Sequence record: OZ035785.1
DNA length: 64,000 bases
Strand: one strand, 5' to 3'
Source: Tequatrovirus BCH953P2
The notes below the pieces were generated by a model, which saw nothing but the letters and a program-made list of their open reading frames with translations, was not told the DNA's origin and searched no databases. Below are positions 11,605-40,438 of this stretch, piece after piece. Made by a program: the position numbers and the translations under genes. Numbering within the stretch: position 1 is the first letter of the stretch; the number at the start of each line of letters is the position of its first letter.

Positions 11605-12075
11605 TTAATCATGTTTCCACACCCCATCGGTATTTGACCAAAGTCGCTGATTATCTGATCCTCGCCACAGCTTTTTAGTCGGAAGATTTTTCTCATACTT
11701 CCCATCAATAATAACATCAACATATTTAAGCATTTCTAGTTGTTTAATATCTTCAAACTTATATCCTGTCCACAACCAAATGCTTTTATTGGGATAAAGA
11801 TTTTTTACTGTTTGAACAATGCAATGAATAACATCCCGGTTATCAGGATAGAGAGGGTCACCTCCGGTTATAGTCAATCCTTCTATATAATCATTATTCA
11901 AACATTCAATTAATTGTTCTAGTGTTTCACCAGTGAATGGAATACCATTTCTAACATTCCATGTTGATTTATTATAACACCCTTCGCATTTATGCAAACA
12001 ACCTGTAACGAAAAGAACGGTCCTGCAGCCAGGGCCATTCACAAAATCACAGGGATAAAATCTATCGTAATTCAT
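11605..12075 (-). CDS. nrdG: Anaerobic ribonucleotide reductase activase NrdG (radical SAM)
   Basis: 156 aa; cysteine cluster CRTVLFVTGCLHKCEGC; stop overlaps the nrdD start. Confidence 0.85.
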   Translation of the reverse strand: MNYDRFYPCDFVNGPGCRTVLFVTGCLHKCEGCYNKSTWNVRNGIPFTGETLEQLIECLNNDYIEGLTITGGDPLYPDNRDVIHCIVQTVKNLYPNKSIWLWTGYKFEDIKQLEMLKYVDVIIDGKYEKNLPTKKLWRGSDNQRLWSNTDGVWKHD

Positions 12076-13889
12076 TGATGCTTAACCCTATGCATGATTT
12101 CTTTATTTTTACCGAGATTAAATCCGCGTTCGTTCGGGTTTCCAAGATATCCGCATGTTCTTCTTATTGTGTTCATCTTTTTAGGATCAGTTTCTCCACA
12201 AATAGAACAAACAAATCCGTTTTCAGTAGGAGTCATTTCATGGGTACTTCCGCATGTAAAACATTTATCTACTGGCATGTTAACACCAAAATAATCTAAA
12301 TGTTGTGCAGCATAATCCCATACGGCCTCAAGACCTTTTAAGTTATTTTTCATATCAGGAAGTTCAACATAAGAAATGTGACCACCTGTCGCAATGAAAT
12401 GATACGGCGCTTCACGAGAAATCTTTTCAAACGGAGTAATATTTTCTTCTACTGAAACGTGGAAACTGTTAGTGTACCAGCCTTTATCGGTAACATCTTT
12501 TACGCTTCCATATTTTTCTGTATCGAGTTTACAGAAGCGATAACAAAGGTTTTCAGCAGGAGTAGAATATAAACTAAAAGCAAATCCGGTTCTTTCAGTC
12601 CACTGTTTAAGATGAGCATTCATTTTAGTTAAAATTTCTCGTCCAATATCACGACCGACAAGAATATTCAATTCGTGAATACCAATGTATCCTAGGGACA
12701 CTGAACTTCTACCGTTTTTAAATAACTCAATTATGTCGTCATCAGGTTTAAGACGAACCCCGAATGCACCTTCTTGGTAAAGAATAGGAGCAACAGTAGC
12801 TTTAACTCCTTTTAAGGAACTAATTCTACACATCAAAGCTTCAAAACACAAATCCATTCGTTCATTGAATAATTCAACAAATTTCTGTTCATTGAACTGT
12901 GTTCCAATATAAGAATCTAACGCGATGCGAGGAAGATTCAATGTTACAACACCAAGATTATTACGTCCATCAAGAATTTCATTACCAGTCGAATCTTTCC
13001 ATACGCTCAAGAAACTACGGCAACCCATTGGAGAAACAGGAACAGATGAACCAGTGATAGCTTTATTGTTCTTAGCTGAAATAATATCAGGATACATCCT
13101 TTTGCTTGCACACTCTAGAGCAAGCTGCTTAATATCATAGTTCGGATCGTCTTTGTAAAGATTAACGCCTTCTTCGACGAACATAACAAGCTTAGGGAAA
13201 ATAGGAGTTATCCCATCACGACCAAGACCTTTAATACGATTTTTCAGAATTGCTTTCTGAATCATTCGTTCAGTCCAGTCAGTTCCCGTACCAAATGTAA
13301 TTGTTACAAAAGGTGTTTGCCCGTTTGAACTAAAGAGAGTATTTACTTCATATTCATAAGCTTGGAATGCATCGTATACGTCTTTTTCTGTTTTAGATTG
13401 AGCATAATTCAACGCATCAGCGATTTGCCATTTTTCTGCATCTTCAATATGTTTTGCATAGGTGCGTTTAACATAAGGAGAAAGTACTTTATCTACATTC
13501 GCAAAAGTCGTTCCGCCATATTGATGGGAAGCAACCTGTGCAGTAATTTGTGCCATAATTGCAGTAGCAACACCGATTGATTTAGGAGTTTCAATCTGTG
13601 CATTACCGAGCTTAAATCCGTTCTCAAGCATTCCTTTTAAATCTACTAAACAACAATTAGTAAAAGGCAATGATATACTGTAATCTAAATCATGAAAATG
13701 AATTAACCCGGCATTATGAGCATTTACAATATGACTTGGAAGAATACTGCAAGCGATATGTTTAGAAACAATACCGGCCATTAAATCTCTTTTTGTTGGA
13801 AAGACACGAGAATCTTTGTTGGCGTTTTCGGTATTTAATTCTTTATCTTTATTTGAAATAAAATTTAAAACATCTTTCTCTAAAGACAT
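12072..13889 (-). CDS. nrdD: Anaerobic ribonucleoside-triphosphate reductase NrdD, uninterrupted
   Basis: 605 aa continuous ORF; C-terminal glycyl-radical motif RRTCGYLG and zinc-ribbon cysteines CFTCGS...CSIC. Confidence 0.9.
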   Translation of the reverse strand: MSLEKDVLNFISNKDKELNTENANKDSRVFPTKRDLMAGIVSKHIACSILPSHIVNAHNAGLIHFHDLDYSISLPFTNCCLVDLKGMLENGFKLGNAQIETPKSIGVATAIMAQITAQVASHQYGGTTFANVDKVLSPYVKRTYAKHIEDAEKWQIADALNYAQSKTEKDVYDAFQAYEYEVNTLFSSNGQTPFVTITFGTGTDWTERMIQKAILKNRIKGLGRDGITPIFPKLVMFVEEGVNLYKDDPNYDIKQLALECASKRMYPDIISAKNNKAITGSSVPVSPMGCRSFLSVWKDSTGNEILDGRNNLGVVTLNLPRIALDSYIGTQFNEQKFVELFNERMDLCFEALMCRISSLKGVKATVAPILYQEGAFGVRLKPDDDIIELFKNGRSSVSLGYIGIHELNILVGRDIGREILTKMNAHLKQWTERTGFAFSLYSTPAENLCYRFCKLDTEKYGSVKDVTDKGWYTNSFHVSVEENITPFEKISREAPYHFIATGGHISYVELPDMKNNLKGLEAVWDYAAQHLDYFGVNMPVDKCFTCGSTHEMTPTENGFVCSICGETDPKKMNTIRRTCGYLGNPNERGFNLGKNKEIMHRVKHQ

Positions 13890-14701
13890 AATTCTAATTT
13901 ATCCTTTTGAAATTCTTCGTCTAAATATGGGTTCCAACCCATTTTAAACCTTTTGATGAAATTATCAATTCTAAATTTCGGTAAGTTTAAATCCGCAAAA
14001 ATAGATGATTTACTTTTAAAATCTGGACCTAAATAATCATATAAAATTTCTGCGTATTTTAACCATAATATATAAGTACCAGATTTAATTGCTCTCGGAG
14101 TTTTCCAAGGTTTTACACCATACATCGGATTTCCACTTCCTTTATGCCTGATAGAAGATGAAATTCCAATTTTAATTTTAGCTTCCTCTGTATGCGAAAA
14201 TCCATGATGTGGATTTTCTTTCCAATATTTTTTAGAAGCTTCTGATATTTTCTTTCTGGCTAAATTAGTATGATGCTTTCCATAAAATCCATGATTTTTA
14301 CCTTTATTACGATTTCTTTTAATCATGGTTATTGATTGCTTTTTTCTAGTTTCTTTAGAAGGAGAAACACCGTACGTTGTAAATTGACCATCAGCATATG
14401 CTAAATTAAAATACTCTTTATTCCATATATCTTTTTCTATATTCTTTTGAAATTCAGCTTCAATGCTAGTTATTTGCTCATCTCCGACTAATTGAAAATA
14501 TAATATTTCAACTTTCGGCGTTTCTTTCAACAGGGCTTTTTGAAATTCGGAAGATGACGAAGACGAATAATAAAATTTACCATTTTTATCAATAATATTC
14601 GTTCCGTCAAAAGCGCAATTAGTTTTACTTCCAATGTAATAATATGGCGGGGTTTTAGCATTAATTCTATTAATAAATGATAGTTTATATACTACATTCA
14701 T
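13880..14701 (-). CDS. Free-standing GIY-YIG homing endonuclease-like protein (seg-like)
   Basis: N-terminal GIY-YIG signature (VYKLSF...YYYIGSK); repeated NUMOD-like modules (GKNHGFYGKHHT, HHGFSHTEEAKIKIG, GSGNPMYG); overlaps nrdD start and gene 49 stop. Confidence 0.65.
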   Translation of the reverse strand: MNVVYKLSFINRINAKTPPYYYIGSKTNCAFDGTNIIDKNGKFYYSSSSSSEFQKALLKETPKVEILYFQLVGDEQITSIEAEFQKNIEKDIWNKEYFNLAYADGQFTTYGVSPSKETRKKQSITMIKRNRNKGKNHGFYGKHHTNLARKKISEASKKYWKENPHHGFSHTEEAKIKIGISSSIRHKGSGNPMYGVKPWKTPRAIKSGTYILWLKYAEILYDYLGPDFKSKSSIFADLNLPKFRIDNFIKRFKMGWNPYLDEEFQKDKLELCL

Positions 14702-15171
14702 TTTAAACTCTTTCTAAGCTGCTTCTTAAATGAAGCTATTAATTGTGTTTTGGTGTCAGATTCATTATATTCAAATCCTCTTTGAAGCATCTCAGCCATC
14801 ATTTCCTCTTTTCCTAAACGAGAAAATTCCTTTGATTTATCTCCAACGAAGTTAGGGTGAATATTATTTTGGGTGTAATCGGATTTTAAATAAGTAAGTA
14901 AATTTTCTAACCATTCAAGATAATCAACACCTTGTCCCTTTAAGCCAGAACGATTAAATTTATGCTTCATTTGACCTTCTGCGGCATTGCAGAGATTACA
15001 AAGCAATCCACGTACCTTTCCTGCTTTTGGTCCATTTAATTCATGGTCATGGTCAAGGTGATTAGCTTGAACGTCAGGATTTAGTTCTCGTTGGCAAATT
15101 AAGCATTTACCATTTTGTGCATCATAAAATTTCTGTTTTTCTTCTTTATATAATTTGCCAGTCAATAACAT
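14698..15171 (-). CDS. 49: Endonuclease VII (Holliday junction resolvase)
   Basis: 157 aa matching remembered T4 endo VII (MLLTGKLYKEEKQKFYDAQNGKCLICQREL...HLDHDH). Confidence 0.9.
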   Translation of the reverse strand: MLLTGKLYKEEKQKFYDAQNGKCLICQRELNPDVQANHLDHDHELNGPKAGKVRGLLCNLCNAAEGQMKHKFNRSGLKGQGVDYLEWLENLLTYLKSDYTQNNIHPNFVGDKSKEFSRLGKEEMMAEMLQRGFEYNESDTKTQLIASFKKQLRKSLK

Positions 15172-23774: not shown

Positions 23775-23804
23775 ATAGTACCATAAAGCTTTATGCTTGT
23801 AAAC
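23775..23804 (-). promoter_or_regulatory. Early sigma70-type promoter upstream of the AAA+ ATPase gene
   Basis: Minus-strand GTTTAC-N18-TACTAT about 23 nt upstream of the 22772..23752 start. Confidence 0.5.
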
Positions 23805-23826
23805 CGTTTTGTGAAAAATTTTTGAA

Positions 23827-23852
23827 ATAAAAAAGGGAGCCCGAAGGCTCCC
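23827..23852 (-). terminator. Rho-independent terminator after the nucleotidyltransferase gene
   Basis: Hairpin GGGAGCC-CGAA-GGCTCCC with a T tract on the minus strand (plus AAAAAA at 23827-23834). Confidence 0.6.
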
Positions 23853-30423: not shown

Positions 30424-30767
30424 CTAGTACTCAATCCTCGATTATAAGAATCTACCAAACGGTCAACCATTGAATGACAAGCGGCTTTATCTTTCTCCTC
30501 CGCAACTGAGCATTCTAAGGTATTCCACTTTTTAGCATATCGTTTTAATAATGTATCGTTTTTGTATCTGCTTGATTTATCTCTTTCTCCGTCTTTATAT
30601 GCATATATTAATTTCTGCGCAAATTCAGCTTGGCATGCTTTATTTTTCCCACAATAATCTGCCGCAGTGCGATTTACATATTCTCTAATTTCAGTATATG
30701 ATGTATCTGCTGACGCAGAAGCAGAAAATGAAATTAATCCTATACATAAAACCAAAATTTTAGTCAT
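30420..30767 (-). CDS. Secreted/periplasmic small protein (vs position)
   Basis: 115 aa with N-terminal signal peptide MTKILVLCIGLISFSASASA. Confidence 0.45.
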   Translation of the reverse strand: MTKILVLCIGLISFSASASADTSYTEIREYVNRTAADYCGKNKACQAEFAQKLIYAYKDGERDKSSRYKNDTLLKRYAKKWNTLECSVAEEKDKAACHSMVDRLVDSYNRGLSTR

Positions 30768-31305
30768 TTACTATTTCCAAAAGTTTATTATTTTTAAGGT
30801 AATTAGCCTTTTCTAGGACTTCAGAAGCATATTTAGAACCAGCTTTAACATTCCATCCCGAATTATAAGAGGATATTGCTTTTCTTATATCGCCCTTATG
30901 TATATTTAACCAATAAGAAAGTTCAATGTACGCCCAGGAAGCTGAATTGGATCGTTTATTCAACATTCTTTTTATTTCAGCATCGGTCATATTATAACCA
31001 AGTTCCTTAACTCTCGCTCGCATAGTAGGCAAATAATTTTGGAACATTCCGTAGGCGTGATGCTTTGGTTTAGATTTTAAATTAACTCCGCCAGAGCTTT
31101 CTTGCCATAAAATGGCTGCCATTATATGGCCCAATCCGCTCTTGTGGATGTTTTTGTGTGTTTTATATTTTCCATCCTTAGAAAATTGTTCCCCGAATTG
31201 ATATGCGTAGCGCATGTTATCGAGTTGGACATTACTGAAAGTATGCTCGGAGCTATGTGCCATCATTGAAATGGCCAATAGACCAGCGAGTAGTGCTTTT
31301 CTCAT
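30760..31305 (-). CDS. Periplasmic lytic transglycosylase-like protein
   Basis: 181 aa; signal peptide MRKALLAGLLAISMMAHS; ILWQESSGG...AYGMFQ resembles the SLT catalytic E-S...GLMQ motif. Confidence 0.5.
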   Translation of the reverse strand: MRKALLAGLLAISMMAHSSEHTFSNVQLDNMRYAYQFGEQFSKDGKYKTHKNIHKSGLGHIMAAILWQESSGGVNLKSKPKHHAYGMFQNYLPTMRARVKELGYNMTDAEIKRMLNKRSNSASWAYIELSYWLNIHKGDIRKAISSYNSGWNVKAGSKYASEVLEKANYLKNNKLLEIVND

Positions 31306-31312
31306 GCTTACC

Positions 31313-31774
31313 TCATTGAGTTTTAATTACTGCTTTAGAAGCCTTTCCTGGTAAACGACGACTGTTGATAATTGCCATCCTACATTGAAGCGACGGGTCT
31401 TTGAACTTCGCATTAGGTTTACAAACTGTAAATCCAAGCCAAAGATTTCCATCTGTGATTTCTAAACGTCCAGGGCGATATTCAACCCCATCAATAAAAT
31501 CCTCGTCAATGTCAGGACGCGGAGGCATACTCAGGAATTCATTAACTTCTAAAACATGGTCTTTTATTTTGTGGAATAATTCAAAAACATATGTCTCATC
31601 AATCTCCCGTTGAATTGCACGATCAAGAAGATGCTGAGAATATTTTAGATGAAACGATGAGACCCCTGCTGCTTTTGATGCCTCACGAATCTCATTGTTA
31701 ATTTGACGAAACTCCGACTCAAAGTGACGACGAAGCTTATTTCGACGGATAAAAACTTCTGTGTTGATAGTCAT
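31313..31774 (-). CDS. regB: Endoribonuclease RegB
   Basis: 153 aa matching remembered T4 RegB (MTINTEVFIRRNKLRRHFESEFRQINNEIREASKAAG). Confidence 0.85.
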   Translation of the reverse strand: MTINTEVFIRRNKLRRHFESEFRQINNEIREASKAAGVSSFHLKYSQHLLDRAIQREIDETYVFELFHKIKDHVLEVNEFLSMPPRPDIDEDFIDGVEYRPGRLEITDGNLWLGFTVCKPNAKFKDPSLQCRMAIINSRRLPGKASKAVIKTQ

Positions 31775-31801
31775 GTTATTCTCCTCTTAACTGATAGAAA
31801 A

Positions 31802-31831
31802 ATTATACCACAGTCAAGAGGAAAAGTAAAC
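31802..31831 (-). promoter_or_regulatory. Early sigma70-type promoter upstream of regB
   Basis: Minus-strand GTTTAC-N18-TATAAT about 28 nt upstream of the regB start. Confidence 0.55.
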
Positions 31832-31833
31832 AG

Positions 31834-32154
31834 TTATTCTTTAAATCTAATCAATTTATTCATAGACTTTGTAACTTCTGCACGAACCTCATGTAGATTT
31901 TTGAGCTGTTCAAGACGCTGCTCATAGTAAGCAATTTCATCTTCTTCGAGACAGTCCTGTGAATCTTCTTTAAGATAACGTGCATAGTCCTGGAAAGCGT
32001 TACGAACTACTTCCTGAAAGTCATCAAGACTTTGAATTTTCTTAGGAGCAACAGATACACGACGAGGGGCAGTATAATACTCATAACCAAACCCTGCGCT
32101 TAATTGAGCCATTAATATTTTTCCTCTGGTTGGAACACAGCACGACAAGCCCAC
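31834..32154 (-). CDS. Hypothetical protein (vs.3 position)
   Basis: 106 aa ORF. Confidence 0.4.
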
Positions 32155-32414
32155 ATACTGGCTTCTTTGAGTTTCGTTTTAGCAATAGTTAACTGATCGA
32201 GGCTTTCGGCATAATTCTTCGCGAATTCACAGTCTTCACAATTATCTAGTGCTTCCCAGAATTCATCGTATAAAGCATCAAAGATAAGTCCTAAACGAAC
32301 TTCAGCGTCTTTGATGGCATTCACTTTACCGATTTTCTTTTCAGTATGCGGCTTATAACCCTTAATATCTTCAATCATATTTGACTTCCTCACCAGTACA
32401 TAAATCATATTCAA
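32112..32414 (-). CDS. Hypothetical protein (vs.4 position; candidate Acb2-like cyclic-oligonucleotide sponge by position only)
   Basis: 100 aa ORF, third gene upstream of regB; assignment rests on synteny, not on a recognised motif; start uncertain. Confidence 0.35.
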
Positions 32415-32592
32415 CTAAACGAATAGGTTCATGAATGCCATATCCCTGAACAGAAATTTCTGTAGTAGGATAAATTCCATCAATATCACCCATGTTCCAT
32501 GCTTCGTTAAATTGCTGTTCGCCTGAATTACTAAACCATTCGGCAAAAGCATTTAGCACATCTTCAGAACCTTCAATAATTATCTTTGCCAT
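32371..32592 (-). CDS. Hypothetical protein (vs.5 position)
   Basis: 73 aa ORF. Confidence 0.4.
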   Translation of the reverse strand: MAKIIIEGSEDVLNAFAEWFSNSGEQQFNEAWNMGDIDGIYPTTEISVQGYGIHEPIRLVEYDLCTGEEVKYD

Positions 32593-32954
32593 TACAAACT
32601 CTCGGTAAAGGTACGAGCGATAACATCGCGCTGCTGTTCCGGAGTCAGAGAGTTAAAGCGAACTGCATAACCTGATACACGGATGGTCAGCTGCGGATAT
32701 TTTTCCGGATGCTTAACTGCATCTTCCAGAGTTTCACGACGCAGAACGTTAACGTTCAGGTGTTGACCACCTTCAATTTTAACTGTAGGCTGTTGCTCAA
32801 TTTCAATTTCACGGGCATGCAAACCGTAGAAAATTTCTGGGTCTACAAAAGAGTCCTCTTTAAAGGTTTTAGAGACAATAATTCGTGCTTGAATACCATC
32901 TTCAAAATAAATAGTACCTTTATGTGTGCCTTCAAGAATTTGATATGCTTTCAT
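32592..32954 (-). CDS. Autonomous glycyl-radical cofactor (GrcA/YfiD-like)
   Basis: 120 aa; C-terminal ~60 residues ([60 protein letters not shown]) match the remembered E. coli GrcA C-terminus including the radical glycine in RVSGYAV. Confidence 0.8.
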
Positions 32955-32961
32955 ATAAACC

Positions 32962-33342
32962 TCAATTAGAAAATAAATTTATCCAAGATTGTTCTTTAAT
33001 TAAAAATGGCTCAGAATCATATGCCATTAAACTCTGTGTGATTAGTCCTTTAAAAGGCCCATCAATAAATTCCATGGTAAAATATGGAATTTTATTCATT
33101 AGCCGTGCATTAGGAGCAGTACATAAAACTCTGCATCCTTTGAATACACCCTTTTGTAATTTGTATTGCTTGGGATAAAATTCGCTCAAAATGTTATTAT
33201 TCGCTAAAATTTCAAAATGATTCACCAATTTATTTTTAATAGTTTTTGGTGAAAAATAGAGATATTCGAAAAGCTGTGCGTCTGTCATCATTGCATTCCG
33301 ATTACGAAAAACTGTGGACGAGTAATACCACCAATGCAACAT
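32962..33342 (-). CDS. Hypothetical protein (vs.7 position)
   Basis: 126 aa ORF. Confidence 0.4.
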
Positions 33343-33827
33343 TTACTATTGCAACAGTACTGTACAGTGTCAATATGAGCATCATAAATCTTATCCATAT
33401 CAGGAGATTTGACAGGCTCATCAATTATATACAAAATTCGCGAAAGCGATAAACCTCTGAACTTGCTTCCTTTATTACCAATAAAACTGCGCACAGAATC
33501 AGTAAATAAACGAAAACGTATATCATCATTAGAATAACGCGAAAATTCCTTTTTAATGTTATTTGCAGAAATTTTAGCGTAAGCTGAAGTATTAGAAAGA
33601 ACAATAACTGTTCCACCGTCATACAACCAATTAGCGGCAAAATTAGTTACTGCAGTTGATTTACCGGATTGACGTCCACCATCTAGTCGAAGTGTGCAAT
33701 ACTGCTTAAGTAAGTCTTCAAATGGTGGGATATAATCGTTTTTACAAATTTCTTCTACTCTAGCGTCAGAATGGTGTGTAAAAGCATTCATCAGGGATAG
33801 ATAAGGACCAGTTAAAAATGTTCTCAT
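33288..33827 (-). CDS. P-loop NTPase-like protein
   Basis: 179 aa; Walker A GGRQSGKST and Walker B-like ILYIIDEP. Confidence 0.45.
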   Translation of the reverse strand: MRTFLTGPYLSLMNAFTHHSDARVEEICKNDYIPPFEDLLKQYCTLRLDGGRQSGKSTAVTNFAANWLYDGGTVIVLSNTSAYAKISANNIKKEFSRYSNDDIRFRLFTDSVRSFIGNKGSKFRGLSLSRILYIIDEPVKSPDMDKIYDAHIDTVQYCCNSKCCIGGITRPQFFVIGMQ

Positions 33828-33981
33828 TTTTGTTCTCTCTAGGTTTGGGCCATTCCATGGCGCATGAATTGTCCATTTCTGTATTTACCCATTACCGCAC
33901 TTGGGCTCGACCTTATTACAGGTTGGCGGGAATCCCTCACAGAATCATGAGGTCCAGCTTGTTCCCATATTTCTTATTTGC

Positions 33982-34455
33982 TTATTTGAATGATTTAACG
34001 TACTGAATAGAACCTTTACTATTCACAAAGGCAATTTTACCATTTTTGTTATACATGGTAGCAGTACGCTGATAGCCATAAGTTTGTTTACCAGATTGAT
34101 AACCAACTAATGCAAAATTATCTTCACCCATTTTATTCTGTTTAGCGCGAATGCGTTCATGGCCATGTGCCATAAGAACCTTAGCATCACCAGTTGCAAT
34201 GGATCTACGAGTTTTTTCATCTTCAACTGTATTAACAAAGTCGTCAAATGAATCAAATTTAGCATGAGATTTATTATACAGTTTTCCATCTACTGCATAA
34301 TTATATCCCTGTACATCCATCTCAACTTCTGTACCATCATCCAATACAGCAGTGATTTTTTGACCTTTTTTAAATTTCAAAAGATCAGTAAAAGATTCAG
34401 CAATAATTTGAGAATTAATAGCTGCTTCAGTGATAAATTCTTGATATGTTTTCAT
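33982..34455 (-). CDS. Internal (head-packaged) protein with capsid-targeting N-terminus
   Basis: 157 aa beginning MKTYQEFITEA, the conserved T4 internal-protein targeting sequence ending in Glu-Ala. Confidence 0.65.
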   Translation of the reverse strand: MKTYQEFITEAAINSQIIAESFTDLLKFKKGQKITAVLDDGTEVEMDVQGYNYAVDGKLYNKSHAKFDSFDDFVNTVEDEKTRRSIATGDAKVLMAHGHERIRAKQNKMGEDNFALVGYQSGKQTYGYQRTATMYNKNGKIAFVNSKGSIQYVKSFK

Positions 34456-34464
34456 ATGTTTCCT

Positions 34465-34881
34465 TTAAATGTAAATATTTTTACCGTAATACTTATACCA
34501 ATGTGGTTTCATTAAAATTTTTTCATCAAGTCGTTGTTGACTCAATTTAATAGCTGATTTGCATGGATTATAATCATTTTTCCATTCTACTGGAATATCG
34601 CTGATGTCAGGAACTTCAGTATCTTTTATACTGAACCCTCGTTTTAAGCATTCCGTTATAATGTCCGATTGACGCTTTCGCAAAAATTCTAACTTATCGT
34701 AAAAGAAAGTAACATGACCAGAACCTAAAATAAATTTAGAAGATATTTTAAAATCTTTAACGCGCTTACCATTTGCCACATGCTTACGAACTATACCAAA
34801 AACACGTGGCAATTCACGATATTCTGCGATTAAATGTTGATCAGCAAGTTCAGATACTAAAGTCAAATTAATACGAGTCAT
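34465..34881 (-). CDS. denV: Endonuclease V (pyrimidine-dimer DNA glycosylase)
   Basis: 138 aa matching remembered T4 endo V ([28 protein letters not shown]). Confidence 0.9.
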
Positions 34882-34906
34882 TTTATCCCTCCAAGTAACT
34901 GTGAAT

Positions 34907-34936
34907 ATACTATCACAATTCTAGGAGAAAGTAAAC
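34907..34936 (-). promoter_or_regulatory. Early sigma70-type promoter upstream of denV
   Basis: Minus-strand GTTTAC-N18-TAGTAT about 25 nt upstream of the denV start. Confidence 0.5.
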
Positions 34937-34940
34937 AACT

Positions 34941-35910
<970 letters not shown>

Positions 35911-40347: not shown

Positions 40348-40351
40348 AAAT

Positions 40352-40438
40352 TGGTGGGGAGTGGTGGAGTCGAACCACCCGAGTCGCAATGACAATGAAT
40401 TTACAGTCCACCCCGCTACCCCTACCGGATAACTCCCC
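40352..40438 (-). tRNA. tRNA-Tyr (anticodon GUA), long variable arm
   Basis: Acceptor GGGGAGT/ACTCCCC, loop CUGUAAA, long variable arm, T arm GGTGG-TTCGACT-CCACC, CCA encoded; 5-prime end lies in a C12 run. Confidence 0.6.

Follow-up and report, generated by a model that had tools for sequence, protein, structure and literature searches.

A host-derived 3′ tract in the phage gene vs.6 and its probable repeated replacement in T4-like phages

How does a strictly lytic phage that destroys the DNA of its host come to carry a stretch of host chromosome almost letter for letter? The question is raised by one small open reading frame (ORF) of Tequatrovirus BCH953P2 (sequence record OZ035785.1), of which we analysed a stretch of 64,000 nucleotides (nt), hereafter the window, that is part of a T4-like genome. 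The ORF encodes 120 amino acids (aa) on the minus strand, at exactly the coordinates given by a first-pass annotation made from the sequence alone. Comparison with related phages identifies it as the orthologue of T4 vs.6 and not merely as a GrcA-like gene. We take Y06I, the name used in the biochemical literature, to be the vs.6 product, in keeping with its location between regB and denV. A 701-nt query around the ORF matches 790 phage records, nine of them at ≥99%; the ORF shares 98–99.9% nucleotide identity with Tequatrovirus vs.6 genes, including that of T4 (98.1% over 363 nt), from whose product it differs at one of 120 residues (Q54 in the window, P54 in T4). Matches at ≥95% nucleotide identity number 488 records, and the family was counted in 1515 phage records spanning T4-like genera, T5-like phages, Aeromonas phages and jumbo phages.

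The gene is thus already known from T4, as is its biochemical role, and what the first-pass annotation put forward amounts, as stated, to a confirmed annotation. The history of the gene is the subject of what follows. We consider it highly probable that the ORF is a vs.6 orthologue encoding a spare part for pyruvate formate-lyase (PFL), and that it is an old phage grcA gene whose 3′ half has been recurrently converted by the host.

Host sequence in the 3′ half of vs.6

Residues 61–120 of the protein are 100% identical to residues 68–127 of Escherichia coli GrcA, including the glycyl-radical motif RVSGYAV, as the first-pass annotation had noted for the last ~60 residues; at residue 60 the phage protein has I and GrcA has V. 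The likeness extends to the nucleotides. From 32776 down to 32592 the window and E. coli grcA agree at 180 of 185 nt, with an exact run of 151 nt (32776–32626), and identity falls abruptly to about background upstream, the break lying directly upstream of the GAA codon of EGGQ. A match to grcA is present in all 5426 complete E. coli genomes searched by megablast, at 95–99% identity. Downstream, the gene ends in phage-type codons, and the AGT and GAG variants found there are common to other phage lineages.

Codon choice within the tract is that of the host. The same-residue codons are identical to those of E. coli in 55 of 60 cases, against 24.4 expected from the window's own codon usage (P = 4.5e-22). 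CTG supplies five of the six Leu codons of the tract and only 5% of Leu codons phage-wide, Arg is encoded by CGT or CGC, and Pro by CCG. The C-terminal half is also richer in GC than the N-terminal half (0.47 vs. 0.34), particularly at third codon positions (GC3; 0.41 vs. 0.22, the value across all long ORFs of the window being 0.23), and this 186-nt patch stands at the 99.1th percentile among all 186-nt windows of the 64 kb. The excess of GC had been remarked on in the first-pass annotation, which had also named the result that would speak against a host origin, namely nucleotide identity no higher than amino-acid constraint imposes together with phage-typical codons; the observed values depart clearly from that expectation. 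Since identity lies far above amino-acid constraint and the codons are of host type, the 3′ half of vs.6 is established as host-derived.

Synonymous divergence (dS) between tract codons 61–116 and E. coli grcA is 0.024, while E. coli grcA itself differs from its orthologues by 0.40 (Citrobacter), 0.62 (Klebsiella pneumoniae) and 1.2 (Salmonella). The hallmarks of gene conversion, namely low dS to the host relative to flanks and orthologues, host composition and sharp boundaries, are all found here. Transfer ran from host to phage: the composition of the tract is the host's, divergence between bacterial grcA genes follows that of the species in both halves, and each phage tract groups with its own host genus. 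Transfer from phage to host was considered and rejected on the same three observations.

Megablast of the 64-kb window against the 5426 E. coli genomes revealed no other host-identical stretch comparable to the vs.6 tract, which alone in the window is matched in every one of these genomes. Within the 25–50 kb segment, the only other similarity to E. coli records consists of tRNA-like hits on a few records, among them a 91% match between the phage tRNA region 40349–40438 and an annotated tRNA-Tyr on a plasmid-sized record of E. coli O111:H8. Elsewhere, 52 nt at 23786–23837 match one E. coli genome at 96.2% (BE104, unannotated, in two places) and no other of the 5426.

The phage-type N-terminal half and the recurrence of host tracts

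The N-terminal half was described in the first-pass annotation as unrelated to GrcA, which proved wrong. Profile comparison of 11 phage with 14 bacterial GrcA N-terminal halves (hhalign) gives a probability of 95.8% and an E value of 7.5e-9, with 27% identity over 59 columns that are colinear from end to end. Pairwise blastp of the phage half against GrcA gives an E value of 3e-5, and the GrcA model TIGR04365 aligns to residues 20–120. Bacterial GrcA N-terminal halves share 82% mean column identity. Among phages, dN/dS in this half is ~0.12 against Mosigvirus and ~0.15 against Jiaodavirus, indicating purifying selection across phage genera. By these alignments the N-terminal halves of the phage protein and of GrcA are homologous though diverged, with similarity that is weak but significant.

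Genes of phage-like composition in both halves, with no host-like tract, occur in the Karamvirus phages CC31 and KMB17, in the jumbo phage Muenster and in T5-like phages, and even the closest bacterial grcA genes reach only about 0.8 to them. A comparison with 81 bacterial grcA genes recovered no recent host-matching tract in Karamvirus, Krischvirus, Slopekvirus, Pseudotevenvirus, T5-like, Biquartavirus or jumbo phages (best identities 0.70–0.84), although the sampled bacteria may simply lack donors for these lineages. In Slopekvirus and Pseudotevenvirus the GC content of the C-terminal half is intermediate. Because the N-terminal half is homologous to that of GrcA and full-length genes of phage composition exist, phages had a grcA homologue of full length before the host-identical tract arose. 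These observations point to replacement of the 3′ half within a pre-existing phage grcA homologue and not to a de novo fusion. Of the origin proposed in the first-pass annotation, a host segment joined to a phage-specific N-terminus, the host-derived 3′ half therefore stands, and the fusion to an unrelated N-terminus gives way to a colinear GrcA homologue.

Two groups of metagenomic contigs (IMG/VR) carry genes of another kind. In L111–L116 and L123, a phage group on contigs of 32–154 kb that apparently come from host-associated metagenomes, the N-terminal half is much closer to the bacterial type (…SIWLIEDNKARCLVAKE…EYREVEI…) and the C-terminal half is nearest to grcA of Haemophilus and other Pasteurellaceae (0.81–0.83), which may reflect a more recent whole-gene capture. 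L121 and L162–L172, although catalogued as viral, carry ordinary bacterial genes, including a full bacterial-type grcA (Yersinia-like, 0.91) and pflB 3′ ends, and were left out of the phage comparison as likely host flanks or misclassified contigs.

A second host is represented among the relatives. Jiaodavirus genes (KpV477, the IMG/VR records L118 and L167, and the metagenomic record L181) have a phage-type N-terminal half, with 72% nucleotide identity to the window and a GC content of 0.35–0.37, joined to a C-terminal half with a GC content of 0.55 that is only 84–86% identical to the E. coli tract. An initial scan of the genome collection for grcA returned no K. pneumoniae, and the donor allele was sought in metagenomes by exact match to a 32-mer from the Jiaodavirus C-terminal half, with naming by exact protein look-up. 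This recovered 24 full-length bacterial grcA genes on metagenome contigs of up to 620 kb, most of those visibly labelled being from human gut, and the protein that these genes encode matches K. pneumoniae GrcA (GRCA_KLEP7) exactly. L181 and L167 are 100% identical to this K. pneumoniae allele for ~155 nt from the GAA of EGGQ, the same 5′ breakpoint as in the window, before the phage-type last ~25 nt. In total, 106 phage records, mostly of Klebsiella phages, match K. pneumoniae grcA at 95–99% over 168–173 nt. The KpV477 tract (L004:1678–1863) has 13 mismatches to the K. pneumoniae allele found in L180 and others, and several of its states (TAC, GTG, TTT, TCC, CCA) equal those of other Klebsiella or Raoultella grcA genes (L035, L051), pointing to another donor within the Klebsiella group or to several conversions that left a mosaic.

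Recurrence is observed: phage lineages carry tracts that match their own host species, with the E. coli type in Tequatrovirus and Mosigvirus and the K. pneumoniae type in Jiaodavirus. One phage N-terminal half behind two host-specific 3′ halves is incompatible with a single fusion event, and is what gene conversion by the grcA of the resident host would produce. It is against this background that a one-off chimera has to be weighed, in which a fragment of host grcA was illegitimately fused to an unrelated phage peptide and all copies descend from that event. A boundary that is sharp and falls at one codon (I60|E61) in every E. coli or Klebsiella phage examined would fit such an origin, as would the low similarity of the N-terminal half to GrcA (27–33%). 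However, a fixed 5′ breakpoint is also expected under conversion, because the phage and host sequences upstream are too diverged to recombine. The significant, colinear homology of the N-terminal half and the genes of phage composition throughout in CC31, KMB17, Muenster and T5-like phages count against the chimera, and tracts identical to E. coli and to K. pneumoniae behind the same phage half already contradict a single event. We regard this explanation as very unlikely.

The history we favour instead is one of repeated replacement. A full-length phage grcA homologue would be old, its N-terminal half having diverged from bacterial GrcA yet remained conserved among phages. Its 3′ half, from 32776 to about 32605, would have been overwritten by homologous recombination or gene conversion with the chromosomal grcA of Escherichia, and in T4-like phages of Klebsiella an equivalent replacement, beginning at that 5′ breakpoint too, would have drawn on K. 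pneumoniae grcA, making the process recurrent and host-tracking. Homologies this short can be used by the T4 recombination machinery, as in marker rescue and in insertion/substitution vectors.

Differences among phages of E. coli bear on the age of the tract. Against Mosigvirus genes, the window has a dS of 0.38–0.43 in the N-terminal half and of 0.05–0.16 in the tract (Fisher p 0.012 to 0.0006). The longest exact runs are 178 nt for T4 and 175 nt for the Mosigvirus L098, both with grcA of E. coli SK1144, while the 151-nt run of the window is with strain 503025. Within the tract these two alleles differ at a single site, the Ser94 codon TCA or TCC (window position 32673), and close phages are divided in the same way, with TCA in the window and L096 and TCC in T4, L093–95, L097 and L098. 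Relatives also differ in where host identity ends on the 3′ side, with different combinations of GAA/GAG, AGC/AGT and CTG/TTG/CTA. Taken together, these observations suggest a tract that either arose after the phage genera had split or has been repeatedly refreshed. Exchange with the host is likely to be ongoing within E. coli phages, a conclusion that rests on few sites.

We lean, with less confidence than for the history itself, towards regarding vs.6 as a standing hotspot at which T4-like phages keep the phage N-terminal half and repeatedly overwrite the 3′ half with grcA of their current enterobacterial host. If so, recent host use could be read and dated from the nucleotides of the tract, and the locus would be a natural system for measuring how a virulent phage that degrades host DNA recombines with the chromosome of its host.

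The protein, its probable role and competing explanations

The protein has the features of the GrcA/YfiD type, being a small stand-alone polypeptide with a C-terminal Gly_radical domain (PF01228, residues 60–101, E 2.5e-18) and the RVSGYAV motif. TIGR04365 (NCBIfam GrcA; IPR011140) scores 154.9 bits (E 1.2e-45), below the 170-bit equivalog cut-off, where E. coli GrcA scores 234; the shortfall arises because the N-terminal half has diverged. The best match among known structures is YfiD (6owr, E 9e-42, with residues 22–120 aligned by phmmer), followed by PflB, to whose residues 697–759 residues 58–120 of the phage protein align (94 bits, E 5e-26; PDB 1cm5, 2pfl). At the sequence level, the C-terminal domain appears to be the counterpart of PflB residues ~696–759, the piece removed or disabled by O2 cleavage.

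In bacteria, YfiD residues 61–127 duplicate the PFL C-terminus (PMC8683613), and the nuclear magnetic resonance structure of this domain, whose sequence is that of the phage domain, does likewise (PMC8683613). The disordered residues 1–60 are needed for binding to cleaved PFL and for efficient installation of the radical (PMC8683613). According to the same paper, T4 Y06I and E. coli YfiD/GrcA are the only two validated spare-part proteins for O2-cleaved PFL, and the radical of Y06I is installed by PFL-activating enzyme, with reactivation of O2-fragmented PFL (Wagner et al. 2001, cited in PMC8683613). This agrees with the first-pass annotation, which had named both the repair of oxygen-damaged PFL by GrcA and a T4 homologue. 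The spare-part function predicted for the present protein rests on this T4 biochemistry, one residue apart.

By analogy with the reports on Y06I, host PflA would install the radical on G95, and the C-terminal 60-residue domain would dock into host PFL cleaved by O2 at Gly734 and restore its activity. After the phage has shut off host expression, the cell may be unable to induce its own grcA, so that the phage would supply a copy. Conversion of pyruvate to acetyl-CoA and formate, and hence fermentative ATP production, might thereby be kept running during micro-oxic or anoxic infection, as in the micro-oxic gut. An identical C-terminal domain would guarantee the fit to host PFL and PflA, while the conserved, non-bacterial N-terminal half may confer PFL-binding or regulatory properties unlike those of GrcA. 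The protein would thus have two parts, a catalytic half that can be freely exchanged and an N-terminal half peculiar to phages, the latter a candidate for the binding or recognition of damaged PFL.

Service to the phage's own anaerobic ribonucleotide reductase, NrdD, is another conceivable role, since NrdD is likewise a glycyl radical enzyme that O2 cleaves at the radical glycine. In the Klebsiella jumbo phage Muenster, a vs.6 homologue lies directly between nrdD and nrdG (L011:1354–1716), an arrangement that suggests an anaerobic module or possibly a link to the ribonucleotide reductase or its activase; both genes are also within the window, and an early suggestion by Nolan et al. 2006 linked vs.6 to nucleotide metabolism (PMC1524935). 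Yet the phage C-terminal domain is 100% GrcA and aligns with PflB 697–759, whereas the C-terminus of the NrdD encoded in the window (…IRRTCGYLGNPNERGF…) is a different sequence context, and the published biochemistry has Y06I rescuing PFL (PMC8683613). In this genome vs.6 and nrdD are, moreover, ~19 kb apart, so that the first-pass description of the gene as acting alongside nrdD and nrdG is right about their presence and only loosely true of their position. We hold a role centred on NrdD to be very unlikely.

Less probable still is the possibility that nucleotide identity was kept by selection on the protein, on codon optimality or on RNA structure without any transfer from the host. The peptide is extremely conserved in all members of the family, and the host expresses grcA at a high level from optimal codons. 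However, the same 60–61 residues are encoded with differences from E. coli at 12–35 of 62 codons in other Enterobacterales and at 27–28 in the phages Matisse and Taquito, dS between bacterial grcA genes is as high as 0.4–1.2, the tract codons are strongly atypical for the phage, and Klebsiella phages match Klebsiella codons instead. This explanation appears exceedingly improbable. An assembly artefact or contamination with host reads, for which nothing speaks besides the identity itself, has a negligible probability given the same junctions in ~490 independent phage records at ≥95%, T4 included, and phage-type flanks on both sides within one ORF whose reading frame and downstream start overlap are intact.

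Several considerations weigh against the history and function that we favour. Evidence for repeated events in E. coli phages consists of one shared polymorphism and three to four 3′-end sites, which are very few, and parallel mutation or phage–phage exchange of a single ancestral tract could mimic repeated events. Illegitimate fusion may have come first, with homologous replacements following later. The TIGR04365 score below the cut-off means that the behaviour of the protein need not equal that of GrcA, and we know of no demonstration that vs.6 benefits the phage in vivo. In the open-access literature we found no description of the nucleotide identity between vs.6 and grcA or of host-tracking conversion; a prior description is possible.

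Up to 178 nt in a strictly lytic, host-DNA-destroying phage are identical to an extant host allele, and a sister genus infecting Klebsiella has the Klebsiella version behind the same junction. The vs.6 tracts are clean evidence, open to quantification, of recombination between virulent phages and the chromosome of the host at short homologous targets, and may serve as a marker of recent host history in T4-like genomes.

Locus and comparison with known systems

On the minus strand, the gene order is e, denV, a gene for a DUF7412 protein, two small ORFs, vs.6, three small ORFs, regB and vs.1 (Table 1). Gene-order comparison places vs.6 in the early region between denV and regB in T4, PhiZZ30, PHB12, KpV477 and CC31 alike, and the gene is annotated as vs.6 or GrcA in PP01, RB14, RB69 and CC31. 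Its stop codon overlaps the start of the downstream ORF 32592..32371 (TAATG), and vs.6 is tightly coupled to its small flanking ORFs. A scan of 31200–35000 for promoters and terminators returned sites no commoner than in shuffled sequence, so that no dedicated regulatory signal can be claimed.

Table 1 Coordinates of vs.6, its parts and nearby or related genes in the window.
Feature	Position	Strand	Basis
vs.6/Y06I-type coding sequence, 120 aa, phage GrcA-like autonomous glycyl radical protein (by sequence)	32954..32592	minus	ORF, Gly_radical, TIGR04365, 6owr match
N-terminal half, codons 1–59	32778..32954	minus	hhalign, blastp, dN/dS
Host-derived tract, 172 nt, one mismatch to E. coli grcA (GAT/GAC at 32625)	32605..32776	minus	
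RVSGYAV glycyl-radical motif, residues 92–98; radical G95 codon at 32672–32670	32661..32681	minus	
Phage-type 3′ end, ACC GAG AGT TTG TAA (host ACT GAA AGC CTG TAA)	32592..32604	minus	
GAGG ribosome-binding site, 5 nt upstream of ATG, overlapping the stop of the upstream ORF	32960..32963	minus	read from sequence
Upstream vs.7-like ORF	33342..32962	minus	
Lysozyme gene e	35528..34941	minus	
denV	34881..34465	minus	
regB	31774..31313	minus	
vs.1	31305..30760	minus	
nrdD, one uninterrupted 605-aa ORF	13889..12072	minus	
nrdG	12075..11605	minus	

Some details of the neighbourhood were also recorded. Upstream of vs.6, the minus-strand ORFs 33827..33288 (179 aa) and 33342..32962 (126 aa) have 55 nt in common; in relatives the latter gene is annotated in a shorter form of 330 nt, and its true start is probably an internal ATG. 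The lysozyme gene e is directly followed by denV and then by the DUF7412 protein gene (34455..33982, minus strand; "internal virion protein" in relatives). Since the T4 record has an internal-protein gene upstream of denV, the region 33982–35528 is rearranged relative to T4. Near nrdD, a 273-aa ORF with a NUMOD3 motif (homing-endonuclease-like; 13880–14701, minus strand) lies between the endonuclease VII gene (15171..14698) and nrdD.

The closest known counterpart of the gene is T4 vs.6, which has the same host-derived 3′ tract and the same breakpoint. The two differ at a few synonymous sites within the tract, the window having TCA at Ser94 and GAT at Asp110, and host identity in the window ends ~9 nt further upstream at the 3′ side.

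E. coli GrcA (YfiD, 6owr) shares the two-part architecture, full-length colinear homology, the identical last 60 residues with the radical Gly and, presumably, the activase PflA and the target O2-cleaved PflB. In contrast, the phage protein is seven residues shorter, and its N-terminal half is only ~27–33% identical, lacking the bacterial LLNSFWLLD and bearing a phage-wide signature of its own, QIL.G..GTIY.EDG..AR.IVSKT..ED. This half is implicated in the binding of YfiD to cleaved PFL, so that binding and regulation may differ in the phage. Unlike the glycyl radical domain of PflB, the phage version stands alone, without the catalytic barrel.

A parallel for the exchange itself comes from cyanophages, in whose psbA gene intragenic recombination between host and phage is reported to have been described by Zeidner (2005) and Sullivan (2006). 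There psbA is likewise a phage copy of a host metabolic gene with host-like patches from homologous exchange. The vs.6 tract differs in always covering one half of a very small gene, in matching extant host alleles at up to 100% over 155–178 nt, and in ending at a domain boundary beyond which the homology between phage and host is too low for recombination.

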